Made by a program: the position numbers and the translations under genes
Part shown: in pieces, positions 7,151 through 49,026 of the stretch
How the letters are laid out: the number at the start of each line of letters is the position of its first letter
Numbering within the stretch: the first letter of the stretch is position 1
Notes under the pieces: generated by a model
Databases searched by the model: none
What the model saw: the letters and a program-made list of their open reading frames with translations, nothing else
What the model was told of the DNA's origin: nothing
Source: Chiloscyllium plagiosum
Lineage: Eukaryota
Reading direction: 5' to 3'
DNA length: 49,666 nucleotides
Assembly (NCBI RefSeq): GCF_004010195.1
Contig: NC_057749.1
Location: forward strand, 13,077,276 to 13,126,941

Positions 7151-7589
7151 ATTTTTTGAAAAAGTGTTTCCTCAATTTGGTTGTAGCTCATGAACAGAGA
7201 AAAATCGATAAAGATGACACTTGCTCAGAGAGGTGATATGATCCAAGAGAATTCGTCAGCGTTGGGGATAGTCCTTCTGGAAAGAGAAATGTGAGAGTGA
7301 CCTGATGGAGACCTTTCAGGTTGTACAAAGATGCAACAAAATGCTGCCACAAGTCTAGGTGCCGAGGCAATCAATATCAGGAAATCACCAAAATATCCAT
7401 CAGGATTTCAGGCAAGTGCCTTCACCCAGAGTGTGGTGAATAACGAGGTACATTTAGGGAGAACTAGGGCAGCACGAGGGAGAAAGGATGAGCAGGATCC
7501 AGTGATCCTGGAGGAACTAGGAGGTTAACCATGACTACAGACATTGGCAAGGACTAGATGAAGCAAATGGTTTACTTTTGTTCTGTGAA

Positions 7590-7759
7590 GAGAAAGTGAG
7601 GTCTGCAGACGCTGGAGATCAAAGTTGAAACTTTATTGCTGGAACAGCACAGCAGGTCAGGCAGCATCCAGGGAAGAAGGGCATGTGCCCGAAACGTCGA
7701 ATCTCCTGTTCCCTGGATGCTGCCTGACCTGCTGTGCTGTTCCAGCAATAAAGTTTCAA
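7590..7759. mobile_element. Palindromic PLE-end insertion with 14-bp TSD
   Basis: Inverted arms; TTTTGTTCTGTGAA at 7576-7589 and 7760-7773. Confidence 0.9.
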
Positions 7760-8232
7760 TTTTGTTCTGTGAACCCTTGGTAACACTCTGTAAATGATGC
7801 AGGATTTGCGAATTACTGGGGCTGGGAGATGTGTGTCTGTGAATACACTGCACACCCAGGTAAAGAGGAACCAAGAATTAGGTCCTTCCCAAAACCTTCC
7901 TTTCATCGAGGTAAGTGCCAAACAGAGACACAGGCTATGGTTCCTGCAGGAATTTCCATCTTTACCACAGTGTGGTGACTGACTGGGAATCTGGCAATCC
8001 AAACTAAACCAGGGAGAACTGAACTCTGATAGGTACAGGCTATAACAACACTGTGACTTTGGATAGCTTCAGTTTGGTGACCTTTCAGAATGCAATGATT
8101 GGAAACGTTCACACTGTCTCACCCTCCGCAGATATTGTCTGTGTATACCCAGCCTTTTGTGTTTTTGTTTTGAATGAAAAAGCATCAGGTTCATGGATTT
8201 ATTGACTGAGGTTTAGCTTCTTGAGATTTATA

Positions 8233-12716: not shown

Positions 12717-14330
12717 TTTCTGGATTAGTGGTGCTGGAAGAGCACAGCAGTTCAGGCAGCATCCAAGGAGCAGCAAAATCGACGTTTTGGGCAAAATCCC
12801 TTCATCAGGAATAAAGGCAGAGAGCCTGAAGCATGGAGAGATAAGCAAAAGGAGGGTGGGGGTGGGGAGAAAGTAGCATAGACTACAATGGGTGAGTGGG
12901 GGAGGGGATGAAGGTGATAGGTCATGGAGGAGAGGGTGGAGTGGATAGGTGGAAAAGGAGATAGACAGGTAGGACAAGTCATGGGGACAGTGCTGAGCTG
13001 GAAGTTTGGAACTAGGGTGAGGTGGGGAAAGGGGAAATGAGGAAACTGTTGAAGTCCACATTGATGCCCTGGGGTTGAAGTGTTCCGAGGCGGANNNNNN
13101 NNNNNNNNNNNNNNNNNNNNNNNNNNNNNNNNNNNNNNNNNNNNNNNNNNNNNNNNNNNNNNNNNNNNNNNNNNNNNNNNNNNNNNNNNNNNNNNNNNNN
13201 NNNNNNNNNNNNNNNNNNNNNNNNNNNNNNNNNNNNNNNNNNNNNNNNNNNNNNNNNNNNNNNNNNNNNNNNNNNNNNNNNNNNNNNNNNNNNNNNNNNN
13301 NNNNNNNNNNNNNNNNNNNNNNNNNNNNNNNNNNNNNNNNNNNNNNNNNNNNNNNNNNNNNNNNNNNNNNNNNNNNNNNNNNNNNNNNNNNNNNNNNNNN
13401 NNNNNNNNNNNNNNNNNNNNNNNNNNNNNNNNNNNNNNNNNNNNNNNNNNNNNNNNNNNNNNNNNNNNNNNNNNNNNNNNNNNNNNNNNNNNNNNNNNNN
13501 NNNNNNNNNNNNNNNNNNNNNNNNNNNNNNNNNNNNNNNNNNNNNNNNNNNNNNNNNNNNNNNNNNNNNNNNNNNNNNNNNNNNNNNNNNNNNNNNNNNN
13601 NNNNNNNNNNNNNNNNNNNNNNNNNNNNNNNNNNNNNNNNNNNNNNNNNNNNNNNNNNNNNNNNNNNNNNNNNNNNNNNNNNNNNNNNNNNNNNNNNNNN
13701 NNNNNNNNNNNNNNNNNNNNNNNNNNNNNNNNNNNNNNNNNNNNNNNNNNNNNNNNNNNNNNNNNNNNNNNNNNNNNNNNNNNNNNNNNNNNNNNNNNNN
13801 NNNNNNNNNNNNNNNNNNNNNNNNNNNNNNNNNNNNNCCCATACGTGTGCCCATGGCTACCCCTTTGGTCTGGAGGAAGTGGGAGGATTCAAAGGAGAAA
13901 TTGTTAAGGGTGAGGACCAGTTCGGCCAAACGAATGAGAGTGTCGGTGGAAGGGTACTGTTTGGGACGTCTGGAGATGAAAAAACGGAGGGCTTGGAGGC
14001 CCTGGTCATGGTGGATGGAGGTGTAGAGGGATTGGATATCCATGGTGAAGATGAGGCGTTGGGGGCCGGGGAAACGGAAGTCTTGGAGGAGGTGGAGGGT
14101 GTGGGTGGTGTCTCGAACGTATGTGGGGAGTTCCTGGACTAGGGGGGGTAGGCCAGTGTCGAGGTAGGTAGAGATGAGTTCAATGGGGCAGGAGCATGCT
14201 GAGACAATAGGTCGGCCAGGGTGGTCAGGCTTGTGGATCTTGGGAAGGAGGTAGAACCGGGCAGTGCGGGGTTCCTGGATTATGAGGTGGGAAGCTGTGG
14301 GTGGGAGATCCCCTGTGGTGATGAGGTTTT
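12717..14330 (-). mobile_element. Penelope-like retroelement (RT to 3' end, partly in gap)
   Basis: MDIQSLYTSI...LNNFSFESSHFLQTKGVAMGTRM (PLE RT), RLGTLQPQGIN (end of endonuclease), pseudo-LTR with hammerhead-like core at about 12781-12808. Confidence 0.93.
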
Positions 14331-20450: not shown

Positions 20451-20988
20451 ACCAAAGTGTGTCTTTCTGATCTCTATCCATTGCAGAGCCAGCTGAAGGA
20501 ACCCGAGCAGATTACTGAGAGTGAGCAGGGTGCAGAGCAGTGTTTCCATTTCTACCCACTGTCTACTGAGGAGCATGTGGGTGCAACCGATTGGAATCTC
20601 TGGCCCAGGAGAGGCTCAGCCATACCCCAGGGAGGGTCACTTGTTGAACATTGCCCTGTCTCCCCACCAGCAGGCACCCTGCTGGGAGCTCTACAAAACT
20701 GCACCGATTGTGACAAACACTTGGACACAGAGAAAATACAATTTGCTTTGGGTGCCAATTAATTTAAATGTGCAACTACATTTCAGACAATTAGTTTATG
20801 CTGAAAATGATCAGCGTGACAAATGGTGGGAATGAGTTGGATATCCTTCAGTTAATGGGAAATCTGGGAGAAGGCTGATGGATGTGATTGATGTTTGATG
20901 TAGTGAGCTGTGAAAGTGAGTGGTGAGGGGAGGACTGGGAATGTGTTTCAGATAAAGCTGGATAAACATGGAACTGATCAAAGGTCAG

Positions 20989-21160
20989 AGGTGAGGACTG
21001 CAGATGCTGAAAACCGGAATTTGGATCAGTGTGGTGCTGGAAAAGCACAGCCGGTCAGGCAGCATCCGAGGAGCAGGAAAATCGACGTTTCGGGCAAAAG
21101 CCCTTCATCAGGAAACTTGCCTGACTTGCTGTGCTTTTCCAGCACCACTCTAATCCAAAC
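20989..21160. mobile_element. Palindromic PLE-end insertion with 16-bp TSD and intact hammerhead core
   Basis: ACTGATCAAAGGTCAG at 20973-20988 and 21161-21176. Confidence 0.9.
21084..21111 (-). ncRNA. Minimal hammerhead ribozyme motif (PLE type)
   Basis: CUGAUGA-A-GGGC-UUUU-GCCC-GAAAC-GUC. Confidence 0.7.
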
Positions 21161-22204
21161 ACTGATCAAAGGTCAGCACATCCCAAAGTTCCTTCAACAC
21201 CATCTGAATTTGTGATCCCTCAAGGAACAATGGGAGACAATATCAGTCTGGATTTCACCGGAAAGTTCTGGAATGTCCCCTCCCACTGCCTTTGTTTCTG
21301 TCTCTTGGCACAACCACAGAAAAGTAACGATACACTGAAATCAAGCAGAAAATTCCATTCTGTAAATAAGACTCTGGAACAAATCGACTACAAGGCATTC
21401 CGATCCCCCTCTTTTATTAAACTCATAAATAATATGCAAATGATTGAGAATTTAATGAACTCAGCCTGACAACAGATGATCTATAGCCTTTAATCCAAAG
21501 CTCAGGGAGCTGTTGAAATTTGTGATTCTGTAAATTAAAGAGACCTGAGTTCTGCAACATGTTGTAATTATTTGCGTTCTGAAAAGCTGGTAATTGTGCA
21601 ATATTTAAAAATGATTTTAAACTTTCCTGCTTGTCTGTAGCTACCGTGGGAATTCCAATAACTGACATTGTTGAAATTGCTATCCAAATTCAGCACCTGC
21701 CACTGCAACAATTCAAACCCATTGTCACTCGATCGATGAGGAGAGGCAGGAAGTGGAGGATGAGTTGAGAGAGTGAGGTGAATAGAAGGTGGCTGGAGGC
21801 AGATGGGCTGAGTGGCCTGTTTCTGTGTTGTATGTTTCATATAGTTGTGAACTTTGATCCATAATAACTGAGCTAACACGTACAGATACTGCATTCAGCA
21901 CAAGTTGTGCTTGGATCTGGGATGTTACCCAATGACCATCTGGTGAGAGACTAGAGGAAAGCACAGAGATACTTGATGTGTTTTGTTGGCTGCTGTTCCC
22001 ATTGTTAAATCGGCTGGTAATTGCTCAGGGCTAGTTCTCACAGACAGATGCCTCTCTCTCATTTTGTCCCTGGGGTGAGCCTACAGTCTGCTTGGTGCCC
22101 GGGTGACTTTCTCGCACTGCCTTCTCTTCAACCTCATGCTGAGCCTTCTGCAGCAGCCAATAAAGTACAGAGGTGTCTGACGATACAGGCGAGGCTACTG
22201 GGAC

Positions 22205-42500: not shown

Positions 42501-45500
42501 CGCTCTCTGAAAGTTGACCCCATGTACCTCCACGTAAAAACAACCACCTTGGATTTTGTATGAAGTGAAGAAAACTAAAGTACCTCAGCATAGGGTTTCT
42601 CTTGCTCAATGGCTATAGAGGGATCATCACTTAAAGTGAGTTTTGCTACCTCACTCTCCAGGCCAACTTTCCCCCAGGCATAATGCTGCACGACACACTT
42701 CAGCGGGAACACTGAAGAAACAAAAAGATTGAAGATCGCTGTTGGTCTCTAAATTATAGTGCAACACTCAAGGTATGGTGATTGCTTGACACAGTGCATA
42801 TTAGAATTAAGATACTGAACTTGATTTTAACTTTCAAATCAATTAGGCAATAAAAAGCTGCAAATTGAGACAATTTTGTTTTAAAACAAAGAACACTTTG
42901 AAATCATGTAAAAGTCAAATGGGGTCTAAATCAATGTGTTTGTTGATAGAGTTCTGGTTGGGAGTGCCATGCTTCTATGAATTCTAGGAGACATGTCCAG
43001 TGTGGGCAACCCTTGTCCTAGGACTGATGTGTTGTCCCAGATTTTGAGCCCACATACAATCTTTCAAATCGCCAGGTTCATTTTCTAATCAGAGAAAATG
43101 AGGACTACAGATGCTGGAGATCAGAGTCAAAACGTGTGGTGCTGGAAAAGCACAGCCATTCAGGCAACATCCAAAGAGGAGAGTTGACATTTCAAGCATT
43201 CCTCATGAACAGCTTATGCTCAAAACATCAACTTTCTTGCTCCTCAACTGGCTGTGCTTTTCCAGTGTCACACTTTTTGACTTATTTTTCATTAGGGAGG
43301 AGAAAGTGAGGTCTGCAGATGCTGGAGATCAGAGCTGGAAATGTGTTGCTGGAAAAGCGCAGCAGGTCAGGCAGCATCCAGGGAACAGGAGAATCGACGT
43401 TTCGGGCATAAGGGCTTATGCCCGAAACGTCGATTCTCCTGTTCCCTGGATGCTGCCTGACCTGCTGCGCTTTTCCAGCAACACATTTCCAGCTTATTTT
43501 TCATTAGACCAACCAAGAGCAACGTGCATAAGACTAGAGTAGCTAATAGTTGGTGTGAACATTGCAATAAAGTAGGATGAGCACAAATCATTGGAGAAAA
43601 GGAGGTTCAGGGGTGACTTGATAGAGGTGTACAAGATGATTAGGGGTTTAGATAGGGTTGACAGTGAGAATCTTTTTCCACGTATGGAGTCAGCTATTAC
43701 AAGGGGGCATAGCTTTAAATTAAGGGGTGGTAGGTATAGGACAGATGTTAGGGGTTCTTTACTCAGCGAGTCGTGAGTTCATGGAATGCCCTGCCAGTAG
43801 CAGTGGTGGACTCTCCCTCATTATGGGCATTTAAGCAGGCATTGGATAGGCATATGGAGGATAGTGGGCTAGTGTAGGTTAGGTGGGCTTGGATCGGCGC
43901 AACATCGAGGGCCGAAGGGCCTGTACTGCGCTGTATTCTTCTATGTTCTAAATCAACTGGCAGCAGCACTGCCCATGATTAATTGATACATATCCCCTTA
44001 TAAAGTCCAATATAGTGGGAAAGGTGGGCAAGACGTTTTAGAAACAAAATCAAATGGTCAGAGCCTCCTCACTAAAGCAGAACTGCCTCATTAAATGGGA
44101 AGCTCTTTACAGCCACTTACTGAAGGAAATATTGACACATACTTCATCCAAAATACTGATAACAAGAAAGATTGGTAGTTCAGGAAGTGAGTGGCTTGTG
44201 CAAGGTTTCTGAGAAGGCATTTGTATTGCTTTTCCCAACAAAGCAGTAAAAATCCTGGAAGGCCAGCAAATTAAGAATGTTCTAAATGCATGTTTGCTCG
44301 CTGAGCAGGAAGATTCGTTTTCAGATGTTTCATCACCACATGAGGTAACATCATCAGTGAGCCTCTGGTGAATCGCTGATGTTGTGACCCACTTTCTATT
44401 TATATGTTTAGGTTTCCTTGGGTTGGTGATGTCATTTCCAGCTCTTTGTTTCAGAGGGTGGTAGAATAGGGTCTAAATCAATGTGTTTCATGATAGGGTT
44501 CTGTTGGAGTGCCATACTTCAAGGAATTCTAGGAAGCTTGTGCAGTGTGGGATCCCTTGTCAGAGGACTGATGTGTTGTCCCAGTCAAAATGTTGTCCTT
44601 CCTCATCTGTATATAAGGATACTAGTAAGAGTGGGTCATGTCTTTTTGTGGCAAGTTAACGTGCATGTATCCTGGTGGCTAGCTTCCTTGCTAAAACTGT
44701 AACAACATTACATTGGACAAACAGGCAGAAAGCTAGCCACCAGGATATTTAAATATCAACTAGTCACAAAAAGACATGACCCACTCTCACTAGTATCCTT
44801 ACATACAGATAAGGAAGGACACCACTTCGAGTGGGACAACAGATCCATCTTTGGACAAACCAAACAGAGACATGCACAAGAATTCCTAGAAGCATAGCAC
44901 TCAAACCAGAAGTCTATCAACAAACATTGATTTAGACCCCATCTACCACCCTCTGAGAAAAAGAACCAGAAGTGACATCAACAACCCAAGGAAACCTAAA
45001 CACAAATAGAAAGCAGGTCATAACACCTACGCTTCACCACAGGCTCACTGATGTTAGCTAATATGGTGAAGAAACATCTGAGTATAAACCTTCCAGCTCA
45101 GCAAGTAAACTTACATCCAGAACCTAACCTGAGCAACAAATCTTCTCAAAACTTACTAATTAAGAATGCTCTCAACTGGCTGTGAGAGGGTGGATAGGAT
45201 GGGAGGGGAGATGAGGAAGGATNNNNNNNNNNNNNNNNNNNNNNNNNNNNNNNNNNNNNNNNNNNNNNGGGGGCACTGGACAGGGGGGAGGGAGAGGGAG
45301 AGGGAGAGGGAGAGGGAGAGGGGGAGGGGGAGGGCCACCCCTGCCCCTGCCCCTGCCCCTGCCCCCGCCCCCCAAACACTGGACATGGCCCCCGCCGTGC
45401 CCCTACATACTGGACAGGGCCCCCCAGGCGGCAGGGAGGCAGCCCTTACTCTGACCTTTAAACCAACACAGCAGACCGCCCTCACTAAGGCCCGAATCCC

Positions 45501-45610
45501 ACACTCCGGCCCACGGGCCCCCTGAATGCTCTGTATGACCGTGACTCGGTGCCGCCAGTCCCCTGATATTAACCGAATTGAAATTCCGCCTCACCCTTCA
45601 CCGCCGCCAT
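33303..45610 (-). CDS. MPI: Mannose-6-phosphate isomerase, whole coding span (8 exons, 1263 nt, 420 aa)
   Basis: Spliced frame runs [20 protein letters not shown]...LWMGAHPKG...[10 protein letters not shown]...LSIQAHP...[20 protein letters not shown]...[31 protein letters not shown]...FRACCML*. All introns are GT-AG with compatible phases. Exon sizes are 16/128/201/142/180/174/209/213. Confidence 0.98.
34533..34741 (-). CDS. MPI: MPI exon 7
   Basis: ctttctag|[32 protein letters not shown]...[13 protein letters not shown]|gtatg, 209 nt. Confidence 0.98.
34890..36340 (+). mobile_element. LINE 3' part with a nested CR1 (about 35515-36275), in MPI intron 6
   Basis: CR1 RT C-terminus ([14 protein letters not shown]...[11 protein letters not shown]); the host LINE tail resumes at about 36280. 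Confidence 0.85.
36856..37029 (-). CDS. MPI: MPI exon 6
   Basis: ttctatag|...[47 protein letters not shown]|gtaag, 174 nt. Confidence 0.97.
38446..38625 (-). CDS. MPI: MPI exon 5
   Basis: ttgttgcag|[14 protein letters not shown]...[15 protein letters not shown]|gtttg, 180 nt. Confidence 0.96.
39962..40103 (-). CDS. MPI: MPI exon 4
   Basis: ttttcag|[47 protein letters not shown]|gtaag, 142 nt. Confidence 0.98.
41359..41559 (-). CDS. MPI: MPI exon 3
   Basis: ctaatag|[11 protein letters not shown]...[22 protein letters not shown]|gtaagt, 201 nt. Confidence 0.98.
42584..42711 (-). CDS. MPI: MPI exon 2
   Basis: tttcttcag|(V)[42 protein letters not shown]|gtac, 128 nt. Confidence 0.97.
43093..43494. 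mobile_element. Two adjacent palindromic PLE-end insertions (old 43093-43280; young 43296-43494 with 15-bp TSD)
   Basis: CTTATTTTTCATTAG at 43281-43295 and 43493-43507; perfect 80-bp inverted arms in the young copy. Confidence 0.9.
43591..43950 (+). mobile_element. CR1 3' end
   Basis: [23 protein letters not shown]...TRGHSFKL. Confidence 0.9.
44284..45157. mobile_element. Palindromic Penelope-like element (third family) with GIY-YIG remnant and 15-bp TSD
   Basis: [14 protein letters not shown] at about 44705; inverted arms of about 400 bp; AATTAAGAATG(T/C)TCT at 44269-44283 and 45158-45172; hammerhead-like core 44324-44357 (-). Confidence 0.85.
45283..45372. repeat. (GGGAGA)n and (CCCCTG)n simple repeats
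   Basis: Direct observation. Confidence 0.9.
45595..45610 (-). CDS. MPI: MPI exon 1 (coding part)
   Basis: ATG GCG GCG GTG AAG G|gtgag inside a CpG island; 16 nt, phase 1, joins exon 2 in frame. Confidence 0.93.
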
Positions 45611-45720
45611 CAGCCCGCTCCAGGCAACACGCGCCAAGCCGACGCGTCATCGCCGGGCCACGTAATCACGTGGAGGAGGGGCACGTGGCCGAGGTGGCTG
45701 CCGGGAATTGTAGTCCTTCC
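45611..45720 (-). promoter_or_regulatory. MPI 5' UTR / CpG-island proximal promoter with two E-boxes and a ZNF143/THAP11-type motif
   Basis: GC/CpG-rich sequence directly upstream of the ATG; CACGTG at 45667-45672 and 45682-45687; minus-strand GGACTACAATTCCCGGCAGCC at 45696-45716. Confidence 0.8.
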
Positions 45721-46113
45721 CTCAAAGTGGAGTTGGTTCTGGAGAACACAAAAACATAAACTGCTGGGAAAAAGAAACGGAGCAGTTTAGTCAGGCAACA
45801 TTGTACAAAGATAAGCAGCAATTGTACAAAGTTTGCAGCAATTTTCTATTTTTCTTTCAGATTTCCAGCATCCACGTTATTCTCCTTTCCGATTTCTGCT
45901 CTGGATGAAATTGCAGTTTGAACTGATATGCTTTGCTGACTCTTTGTGCTTTCGTCAAATATCCGTTGGAGTGTAGGTGATCCATAATAGTCAGTTTTCT
46001 CAAACTAATTTAAATTGTTAACTGAAAATGTTACATTTTTCATGTAATTTATCATATTCTCTGGACTTCTAAAGCACTGCAAATTCTCCTTTGCAATTCT
46101 ATATCTGTTATGC

Positions 46114-46314
46114 CAGAGACCAAAAAAACTGCAGATGCAAGAATCCAAGTTAGAGAAGCAGGAGACTGGAATAGCACAGCAAGCCAGGCAGCATCAACAG
46201 GTGAAGAAGTCAACATTTCTAGTGTATCCCAAAAGAAAGGTTACACCTGAAATGTTGACTTCTCCACCTCCTGATGCTGCCTGGGCTGCTGTGTTCTTCC
46301 AGCCTCCTGCTTGT
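46114..46314. mobile_element. Old palindromic PLE-end insertion with 15-bp TSD
   Basis: CTATATCTGTT(A/G)TGC at 46099-46113 and 46315-46329; inverted arms. Confidence 0.75.
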
Positions 46315-46736
46315 CTATATCTGTTGTGCAGGCAAACGTGACAACCAATCCATTTTTTAAAAAAAGCTTCTTTTTTAGGAAGACATGTTGGTCAAAATAT
46401 TCAGAAAGCTTTTTTTCCTGATTAGTAATTTTATTCTACCTGACGAGGCAAACAATGCCTTGTATTATCAGAGACTGGGATTGTCATAGTGTTGAGGGCT
46501 CAGACGGAGAGGAATTTGTTTAAATGTGTATAAAAAAATTTCAAAATTCAGTTTGTGGATGTACCTCCCAGAGAAACAGAAAAAACCTGACCTTCTCTTG
46601 GGAAATAAGGCAGGACAAGTGACTGAAGTATCAGTGGGGAAGCACTTTGAGGCCACTGATCATAATTCTGTTAGTTTTAAAATAATGGTGGAAAAGGATA
46701 GACTTGATCTAAAAGTTCAAGTTCTACATTGTAGGA

Positions 46737-47105
46737 AGCTGAAAATGTGTTGCTGGAAAAGCGCAGCAGGTCAGGCAGCATCCAGGGAACAGGAGAATCG
46801 ACGTTTCGGGCATAAGCCCTTCTTCAGGAAGGATTAATATCAGGGAACTGGCGGCACCGAGTCACGGTCATACAGAGCATTCAGGGAGCCCGTGGGCCAG
46901 AGTGTGAGATTCGGGCCTTAGTGAGGGCGGTCTGTTGTGTTGGTTTAAAGATCAGAGTAAGGGCTGCCTCCCTGCCATTCCTGAAGAAGGGCTTATGCCC
47001 GAAACGTCGATTCTCCTGTTCCCTGGATGCTGCCTGACCTGCTGCGCTTTTCCAGCAACACATTTTCAGCTCTGATCTCCAGCATCTGCAGTCCTCACTT
47101 TCTCC
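46737..47105. mobile_element. PLE inverted-arm cassette carrying a captured 143-bp MPI intron-1 fragment
   Basis: Identical 94-bp arms 46737-46830 and 46978-47071; filler 46834-46976 is the reverse complement of 45430-45572; TSD CTA(C/A)ATTGTAGGAAG at 46724-46738 and 47106-47120. Confidence 0.93.
46981..47008 (+). ncRNA. Minimal hammerhead ribozyme motif (mirror copy at 46800-46827 on minus)
   Basis: CUGAAGA-A-GGGC-UUAU-GCCC-GAAAC-GUC. Confidence 0.7.
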
Positions 47106-49026
47106 CTAAATTGTAGGAAGGCCAATTTTGTTGGTATTATGAGCTTTCAAACATTGATTGGGACAGGCTAGTCACAGGTAAAGGGATGTTGGAAAGTGGG
47201 AGGCCTTCAAAAATGAGATGAGATAGTATGTTCCTGTTAGGGCAAGGCTGGTACATGTTGGGAATGCTAAATGATTAGATAGATTGAGGTTATGGTCCAG
47301 GAAAAGGCGGAGGCATATGTCAGGTTGAGAAAGCTGGGATCAAGTGAATCCCTGGAGGAATACAAGGCAGTAGGAATATACTTAAGAGGGAAATAAGGAA
47401 GGCAAAAAGGGGACATTTGATAGCTTTGTCAAATAAAGTTAATGAGAATCCAAAGAGACTCTACAAATACATTAAGGGTAAAAGAGTAACCAGAGAAGGA
47501 ATAGGACCCCTTAAAAATCAACAAGGCCATATATGTGTGGAACCCCAGGAGACGAATACAATACTAAACAAATAATTTGCATCAATAATTACTGTGGAGA
47601 AAGACATGGAAGCTAGAAAACTTGGGAAATAAATAGTGCTATCTTGAAAAGTGCCCATATTAAGCTAGATGTCTTAAAATGCAATAAGGTGGATAAATCT
47701 CTGGGACCTAATCAGCCATACTGTAGAACTCTCTGGGAAGCGAGGGAAGTGATTTCTAGGCCCCTTGCTGAGATATTTGTATCATCAATAGCCACAGGTG
47801 AAGTGCCAGAAGACTAGAGGTTGGCCAACGTGGTGCCACTATTTAAGAAAAATGTTAATAAAAAGCCAGGGAACTATAAACCAGTGAGCCTGACTTTGGT
47901 GGTGGGTAAGTTGTTGGAGGCAATCCTGAGGGACAGGATTTACATGTATTTGGAAAGGCAAGGACTGTTTAGGAATAGTCAACATGGCTTTGTGCGTGGG
48001 AAATCATGTCTCACTAACTTCATGTCTCACTAACTTCAAAAAATAACAAAGACGATTGATGAGGGCAGAATGGTGGATGTGATCTATATGGACTTCAGTA
48101 AGGTGTTCAACAAGGTTCCTAATGTTAGCAAGGTTAGATCACATGGAATACAGGGAAAACCAGCTATGTGGATAAAGAACTGGCTTGAAGATAAAGAGTG
48201 GTGGTGAGAGTTGCTTTTCAGACTGGACGCCTGTGACCAGCAGTGTGCCACAAGAGATTAGCACTGGGTCCACTGTTTTTTGTTATTTATATAAATGATT
48301 TGGATGTGAACATAAGAGGTATGGTTAGTAAGTGTGCAGATGACAGTAAAATTGGAGGTGTAGTGGACAGCAAAGAAGGTTACCTCAGAGTACAATGGAA
48401 TCTTGGTCAGAGGGGCCAATGGGCTGAGGAGTGGCAAATGGAGTTCAATTTAGATAAATGTGAGCTGCAGCATTTTGGAAAGGCAAATCGGAGCAGGACT
48501 TATACACTTAATGGTAAGGGCCTGGGGAGTGTTGCTGAACAAAGAGACCTTTGTTCATAGTTCCTTGAAAGTGGAGTGACAGGTATATAGGATAGTGAAG
48601 GTGGTTGGTACGCTTTCCTTTATTAGTCAGTGCATTGAGTATAGGAGTTGGGAGGTCATGTTGCAGCTGTATAAGACATTGATGAGGCCACTTTTGGAGT
48701 ATTGCATGCAGTCTAGTCTCCCTCCTATAGGATGTTGTGAAACTTGAAAGGCTTCAGAAAACATTTACGAGGATGTTGCCAGGGTTGAAGGGTTTGAGCT
48801 ATAAGTGGCTGAATAGGCTGGGACTTTTTTCCCTGCAGCATTGGAGGCTGAGCTTAGAGGTGTTCATAAAATCATGGGAGCATGGTTAGGGTAAATAGGC
48901 AAACTAGAGGGCATAGGTTTAGGGTGAGAGGGGAAAGATTTAAAAGGGACCTGAGGGTCAACTTTTTCTTGCAGAAGGTGGTGTGTGTGGAATGAGCTGC
49001 CAGAGGAAGTAGTAATGGTTGGTACA

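Follow-up and report, generated by a model that had tools for sequence, protein, structure and literature searches.

Penelope-like elements (PLEs) typically insert with an inverted, 5'-truncated copy at their 5' side and with a tail of 30–40 bp at one end only, according to the available parts of PMC8557442 and PMC3846280. A PLE protein studied in purified form cuts both strands of its target and extends them, and reverse transcription starts at two internal sites whose spacing corresponds to the tail; the steps that follow first-strand synthesis are still unvalidated (PMC11167929). In the rotifer Adineta vaga, PLEs show a tendency to self-priming and hold spacers of host DNA and intron-containing host genes with their introns kept, and unrelated non-coding sequence has been captured between Penelope terminal repeats within target duplications (PMC3846280, in the part available). 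Here we describe a PLE cassette from the shark Chiloscyllium plagiosum that carries, between two inverted arms, a 143-nt filler matching the first intron of the neighbouring gene MPI. It lies in a stretch of 49,666 nt of NC_057749.1, which was analysed as a whole (the window) and to whose coordinates all positions refer.

As in the A. vaga captures described in the available text of PMC3846280, intron sequence is retained, and DNA foreign to the element is framed by PLE repeats together with a target duplication. The rotifer repeats are direct or solo, with no nearby donor reported in that text, whereas the shark arms are inverted and the donor lies 1.26 kb away in cis. With inverted PLE insertions (PMC11167929; PMC8557442 and PMC3846280 for the parts available) the cassette shares the head-to-head arms, the one-sided tail, the target duplication, a hammerhead-like motif and extreme 5' truncation; it differs in that the unit has only ~130 nt of the element 3' end per side, and a 143-nt host piece at the join.

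Two further systems invite comparison. L1 chimeras arising by template switching and twin priming have been catalogued (PMC13174262; see also PMC4476161 and PMC2837659, as far as the accessible portions go), and like them the cassette would have a second template on the 5' side of a truncated complementary DNA (cDNA), in the same sense and within one target duplication. L1 partners, however, are in these accounts mostly abundant small RNAs or mRNAs from elsewhere, whereas here the partner is the unspliced intron start of a neighbour and the enzyme belongs to another family. Templated insertions at double-strand breaks (PMC5110952, available part) likewise consist of a stretch templated from another genomic place and inserted at a break; those come from distant regions, whereas in the shark the donor is local, and the break would be an integration intermediate or the centre of a palindrome. 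An earlier first-pass annotation of this DNA knew of no description of such a capture for shark PLEs. As a claim of novelty this was too strong, since sequence capture between PLE repeats is known from rotifers (PMC3846280, available part). What is new here is the shark host, the position at a head-to-head join and the identification of the donor in cis; we found no description of shark PLE cassettes or of cis-derived filler in the literature, supplements aside.

The filler is the reverse complement of 45430-45572, with 137 of 143 positions matching and no gaps, and a repeat search of the window returned the two stretches as an inverted repeat that is 96% complementary, with 1261 nt between its halves (Table 1). 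When the filler was compared to the whole window by BLAST, only the filler itself and the donor were recovered (E 8.7e-64; next best E 0.82). The two arms, of 94 nt each, are inverted head to head and 100% complementary, and the right arm alone is followed by a 34-nt tail. The whole is enclosed by a 15-nt direct repeat whose copies agree at 14 positions. The cassette junctions are flush, with no N at either: on the right, filler and arm overlap by 1 nt (the C at 46976), on the left 3 nt separate them, and inspection of both filler junctions revealed no microhomology of 2 nt or more.

The insertion site lies in a degenerate long interspersed nuclear element (LINE), a putative CR1, on the + strand. 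Its reading frame continues across the target duplication, and the flank beyond the cassette yields two RVT_1 matches (47818-48030, E 2.5e-5; 48237-48557, E 0.0085), both below the Pfam cut-off; no second LINE copy with an empty site is present in the window. In these respects the first-pass annotation read the locus well. The ungapped relation between filler and donor, the identical 94-bp inverted ends, the interrupted LINE and, by BLAST within the window, the restriction of the filler to two sites were all borne out, as was the description as a Penelope-like cassette with inverted arms, since inverted pair, one-sided tail and target duplication are all present. The 15-bp target-site duplication that it reported does bound the cassette, with a match of 14/15 instead of 15/15.

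In the window, the arm sequence is also found at 145-238, 1710-1796 and 12728-12811, and in five more inverted pairs. The copy at 1710-1796, which is ~87% identical to the cassette arm, adjoins a degenerate frame on the - strand (2046-2498) with a CxxC motif and a GIY-YIG-like segment (Pfam E 0.024, below the cut-off). This frame shows 76% identity over 133 amino acids to P0002, a shark protein of 486 amino acids and the single match returned by a search among longer proteins. P0002 itself carries RVT_1 (E 0.0077) followed by GIY-YIG (E 2.5e-4; 21.7 bits versus a cut-off of 22.6), both just below cut-off. A reverse transcriptase followed by a C-terminal GIY-YIG endonuclease within one open reading frame (ORF) is the canonical layout of endonuclease-bearing PLEs. 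The cassette itself has no ORF. Each arm is a PLE 3' end, a membership that rests more firmly on the insertion signature than on domains. The stretch 1708-2900 on the - strand is a 5'-truncated, frameshifted Penelope-like element, whose end is the arm copy 1710-1796.

The insertion signature is shared by the family. Four of the five other arm-family foldbacks in the window have 14–16-nt flanking direct repeats and a tail at one end only, and in all five the spacer is 9 nt or shorter or the arms overlap. The cassette is thus the ordinary product of its family plus a long filler, and its only unusual part is the 143-nt spacer. Both cassette arms end within 1–2 nt of one element position, and none of the eight foldback arms in the window passes this point. 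In all three longer copies the position is the A of an initiator-like YYATTCC, so called for its likeness to the initiator consensus, with a conserved TTATCT ~30 nt upstream. The arms may be run-off copies of a short transcript that started in the repeat, as these motifs suggest.

Three young PLE foldbacks (7575-7773, 20973-21176 and 43281-43507), each flanked by a 14–16-nt target duplication and tailed on a single side, differ in how well their arms agree in length: 53 versus 86 nt and 31 versus 85 nt in two of them, and a nearly equal 80 versus 85 nt in the third. Three diverged long copies have, at 136-197, 1796-1846 and 12811-12861, the conserved TTATCT ~30 nt upstream of YYATTCC, a possible core promoter in the terminal repeat where the foldback arms end.

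Each arm also carries CTGAAGA..GAAACGTC, 3 nt from its inner end (four matches in the window versus 0 expected), with the core nucleotides CUGAAGA .. GAAAC GUC present in both. In the minimum-energy fold, helix II forms as GGGC/GCCC (4 bp, with a bulged A), helix I has 3 of 6 pairs, and the monomer has no helix III; only 3–4 nt of the 5' strand of helix I are element sequence in the cassette. Cofolding predicts an interrupted intermolecular helix over the near-palindrome GAAACGUCGAUUC. The Rfam hammerhead models did not match the arms at gathering score or at E<=10, and elsewhere Rfam returned only sub-threshold miRNA-family matches on an old foldback (46151-46317), which we take to be spurious hairpin matches.

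Minimal PLE hammerheads are described in the available part of PMC4209133 as having a CUGANGA..GAAA..GUC core and a dimer logic. The shark arms resemble them in the conserved core and in the dimer-type helix prediction, and differ from them in the 4-bp helix II, the half-paired helix I and the lack of an Rfam match. Of the hammerhead-bearing arms announced by the first-pass annotation, the CUGANGA...GAAAC-GUC core next to the inner ends holds, with no Rfam hammerhead model matched even at E<=10. The arm hammerhead is a motif-level match and the ribozyme is putative. The motif is complete in both arms, so the template had not been cleaved at the ribozyme site, which agrees with the finding that hammerhead cleavage is not needed for PLE integration in vitro (PMC11167929).

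The donor belongs to MPI, which lies on the - strand: three ORFs match PMI_typeI_cat (E 6e-11 to 3e-18) and two match PMI_typeI_hel in Pfam, and in exon 2 (42578-42748) the PMI_typeI_cat match begins at profile position 1. Exon 1, being too short to test, was read by eye, with a putative donor GT at 45594-45593 and GTGAGG after the exon. With the exon-1 boundary placed in this way, the donor would be part of MPI intron 1. The sense strand of the donor is G-rich (GC skew +0.26, GC 0.60) and lies within a GC-rich promoter-proximal zone. The filler is unspliced and purely intronic, and bears no mark of splicing, polyadenylation or other RNA processing, which is compatible with nascent pre-mRNA as well. 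No PLE sequence adjoins the donor at 45380-45429 or at 45573-45620.

A small-RNA gene as donor was considered and rejected (fold z-score -0.09; sole Rfam match at E 2.9, no RNA-family match). Just inside MPI intron 1, at 45223-45370 and 60–200 nt from the donor, (GGGAGA)n and (CCCCTG)n microsatellites come after a gap of 46 N.

Contigs from four public runs and three organisms were used for comparison, two runs being conspecific and two from other species. Contigs of all four runs cover the intron copy, and in X1, X10 and X12 they continue through exon 1 and the promoter. Since these include two other species, the intron copy is the older one and the filler is derived. At each listed differing place of the intron copy, one contig accounts for all the depth in every run. 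Over the arm bins the depths sum to 10^6–10^7; such contig depths are not copy numbers. A bin that lies wholly in the filler (46876-46943) has some contig cover in both conspecific runs and none in the runs of the other species, where missing cover is not to be read as absence. The loose-end consensus before 46976 is the PLE sequence of longer copies and not the filler. Across the contigs of the four runs there are more than 2000 distinct arm-to-arm joints, many of them with 1–7 extra nt.

The filler differs from the intron copy by five G-to-A and one C-to-T changes, the intron having G or C at all six places. Five of these six are listed in the contig comparison, 45455 having no row. The letter of the filler is found in all four runs at 45499 and 45519, in three of four at 45560 and 45471, and in the two conspecific runs only at 45507, a CpG. 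The two other species agree with the filler at four of the five listed places, which indicates that the 4% divergence lies mostly in the intron copy of the window, as change, polymorphism or error, in each case towards G/C. Candidate sources of these intron-copy differences are clustered weak-to-strong changes, gene conversion involving the inverted copy, and assembly error. The filler lineage itself shows one visible change, a CpG transition, and thus does not conflict with the 0/94 differences between the arms; the event is young.

Editing of the filler by a deaminase or an ADAR-type enzyme was dropped as a candidate, the other species carrying its letter at four of five places and the arms being unchanged. 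One X1 contig pairs G at 45471 with T at 45499, which fits neither copy of the window, and the mixed letters in X1 and X2 may come partly from contig construction. The flank 45573-45872 has no listed difference in X1.

We consider it about an even chance that the filler was copied, as the two arms were being joined at integration, from a local MPI-sense template, either nascent pre-mRNA or DNA displaced near the promoter. We infer a single event: a PLE integration into the LINE ~1.1 kb upstream of MPI exon 1 would have yielded two 5'-truncated 3'-end copies head to head, one 34-nt tail and a 15-nt target duplication. After a staggered cut, both strands would prime cDNA synthesis on PLE RNA, beginning at the distal start site for the right arm and at the proximal one for the left, and both cDNAs would run to the same template point, maybe where a short transcript that began within the terminal repeat has its 5' end. 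The polymerase of the tail-bearing cDNA would then move onto an MPI-sense template before end joining, copying it from +165 back to +23. This template could be MPI pre-mRNA still being made, or the G-rich sense strand that a promoter-proximal R-loop displaces, and the polymerase could be the enzyme of the element or a host repair polymerase; in both cases either candidate fits. The ends would finally be joined with 1–3 extra nt and no useful microhomology.

Several observations are in line with template capture at integration. The end of a template is where other retroelement enzymes jump to a new one. Template jumping by such enzymes is treated in PMC8857657 (available part). The short extras of 1–7 nt at many arm joints indicate that fillers arise at such joints, of which 143 nt would be the long extreme. 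The filler is in MPI sense and stands on the upstream side of the tail-bearing sense arm, whose orientation it shares, and the 15-nt duplication encloses them all; it would therefore be that cDNA continued on an MPI-sense template. In target-primed reverse transcription by L1, chimeras follow the rule that the switched sequence has the same sense as the primary cDNA (PMC13174262, available part). The capture of a local template is also supported by the nearness of the donor, at 1.26 kb for a genome of this size, and by the GC skew of +0.26 of its sense strand next to a GC-rich promoter.

A number of points weigh against this reading. It concerns a single instance. Orientation is worth at most a factor of two, since the two arms are opposite and the filler must match one of them, and the 0–1-nt junction overlap fits end joining after any synthesis. 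Nothing seen fixes the timing of the filler relative to the arms, and later repair at the centre of the palindrome fits the anatomy equally. The template switch onto a host sequence ~1.3 kb away, as first proposed, keeps its source (1.26 kb off, of non-PLE sequence and in the expected orientation) and shares the anatomy with later repair. The idea that the arm ends mark a transcription start rests on a sequence motif, and many element copies continue upstream of the arm-end point (176 contigs in run X1). The cassette structure comes from this assembly alone: in a listing of 15 joints out of 2096 and of 32 contig pieces, no contig bridges an arm/filler junction or the empty site. Finally, the letters of the filler are alleles at the intron locus in other individuals, which fits a misplaced alternative haplotype too.

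Among the alternatives, the one that survives best has two steps, and we regard it as rather unlikely. An ordinary, nearly perfect PLE foldback would have formed first. A later break at the centre of the palindrome, through cleavage of a hairpin or cruciform, would have been repaired by host synthesis that took 143 nt from the nearby intron DNA, inverted, by template switching in replication or repair, with end joining to follow. The filler indeed sits exactly at the centre of symmetry, between arms that are complete within 1–2 nt of each other, and foldbacks with no filler (43333-43494 and 46151-46317) have similarly complete arms. Repair-type template switching gives local, inverted donors, and the donor found here is as expected from it. 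Fold-back inversions with templated insertions are named in the available part of PMC9588063. Nothing in the filler, being intronic and unspliced, needs RNA. Microhomology-mediated switching, however, uses some microhomology, and neither junction has 2 nt or more of it. Short fillers, moreover, are common genome-wide and also occur in foldbacks with intact target duplications, which points to the time of joining. No allele lacking the filler was seen, in output that could not have displayed one.

It is improbable, in our estimate, that the structure is an assembly artefact in which the second-haplotype contig of a heterozygous intron was placed, inverted, in an unresolved palindrome centre. 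Of the five N runs in the window (2766 N), the donor has one at a distance of 160 nt, and the tandem and inverted structures of PLEs are reported to trouble short-read assemblies (PMC8557442, available part). No N lies at the junctions, however, and arms and filler have no overlap able to join contigs. A source haplotype equal to the filler is plausible, since the conspecific runs carry its letter at four of five listed intron places; against this, the filler extends 25 nt and 12 nt past the outermost differing sites, unlike a k-mer bubble, and its ends coincide with the symmetric inner arm ends, at the recurrent joint position of the family. No junction-spanning contig is found among those listed, whereas both conspecific runs cover the bin inside the filler, although an alternative allele could explain this cover too.

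It is very improbable, and was rejected, that the 143 nt represent a dispersed repeat or PLE-internal sequence, or that they came by 5' transduction out of a PLE copy within MPI intron 1: the extreme abundance of the arms in contigs and a loose 10-nt resemblance of the 1710-1796 copy into the filler end speak for it, but the 143 nt occur only twice in the window, PLE copies that extend upstream carry a different sequence, the intron copy has the depth of one contig in every run at the listed places, and the donor has no PLE next to it.

A filler whose donor is identified in cis settles, for one step of synthesis at a PLE join, the strand, the direction and both end points. As a single locus it changes nothing for MPI and is at present an anecdote. 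A broader and unlikely proposition is that PLE joins are made by a polymerase that runs off a short, repeat-started transcript and jumps to any single-stranded sense template, which near an active CpG-rich promoter would be nascent pre-mRNA or the displaced strand of an R-loop. If this were true, long spacers at PLE joins would record, as fossils across the genome, which loci beside integration sites had been open or under transcription in the germ line, and would give a first natural read-out of the second, unsolved half of how PLEs integrate. Counting such spacers throughout the genome could separate RNA from DNA templates.

Table 1. Features of the cassette, its target site and the donor locus, in window coordinates.
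Feature	Position	Strand	Basis or remark
Left target-site duplication copy	46724..46738	.	CTACATTGTAGGAAG; 14/15 with 47106-47120
Left arm, PLE 3' end, antisense on + strand, no tail	46737..46830	-	Outer 2 nt overlap the target duplication
Hammerhead-like core, left arm	46800..46827	-	CUGAAGA, 4-bp helix II, GAAAC GUC; pattern match, no Rfam match
GGA between left arm and filler	46831..46833	.	2/3 nt agree with what longer PLE copies have beyond the arm
Filler, copy of the donor, MPI sense on + strand	46834..46976	+	Repeat search, BLAST, alignment
Single A matching PLE just upstream of the arm (..YCATTCC..)	46977..46977	+	C at 46976 agrees with PLE and donor alike
Right arm, PLE 3' end, sense	46978..47071	+	Repeat search, BLAST
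Hammerhead-like core, right arm	46981..47008	+	Pattern match
34-nt tail; element 3' end at 47105	47072..47105	+	More than 1100 contigs per run diverge after 47105
Right target-site duplication copy	47106..47120	.	CTAAATTGTAGGAAG
Left flank, degenerate LINE ORF2 upstream of the reverse transcriptase domain	46496..46723	+	Open frame ending ..KVQVLHCRK at the target duplication
Right flank, same LINE continuing into the reverse transcriptase domain	47121..48560	+	Open frame, RVT_1 matches
Donor, within MPI intron 1 (probably +23 to +165, counted from the exon-1 donor site)	45430..45572	-	Alignment; exon read by eye
Coding part of MPI exon 1, inferred: ATG GCG GCG GTG AAG G	45595..45610	-	Read by eye; ATG 45610-45608

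An older foldback of a related family lies 400 nt to the left of the cassette (46098-46329), with 79-nt arms that are 85% complementary, a 9-nt spacer and a 16-nt flanking repeat.

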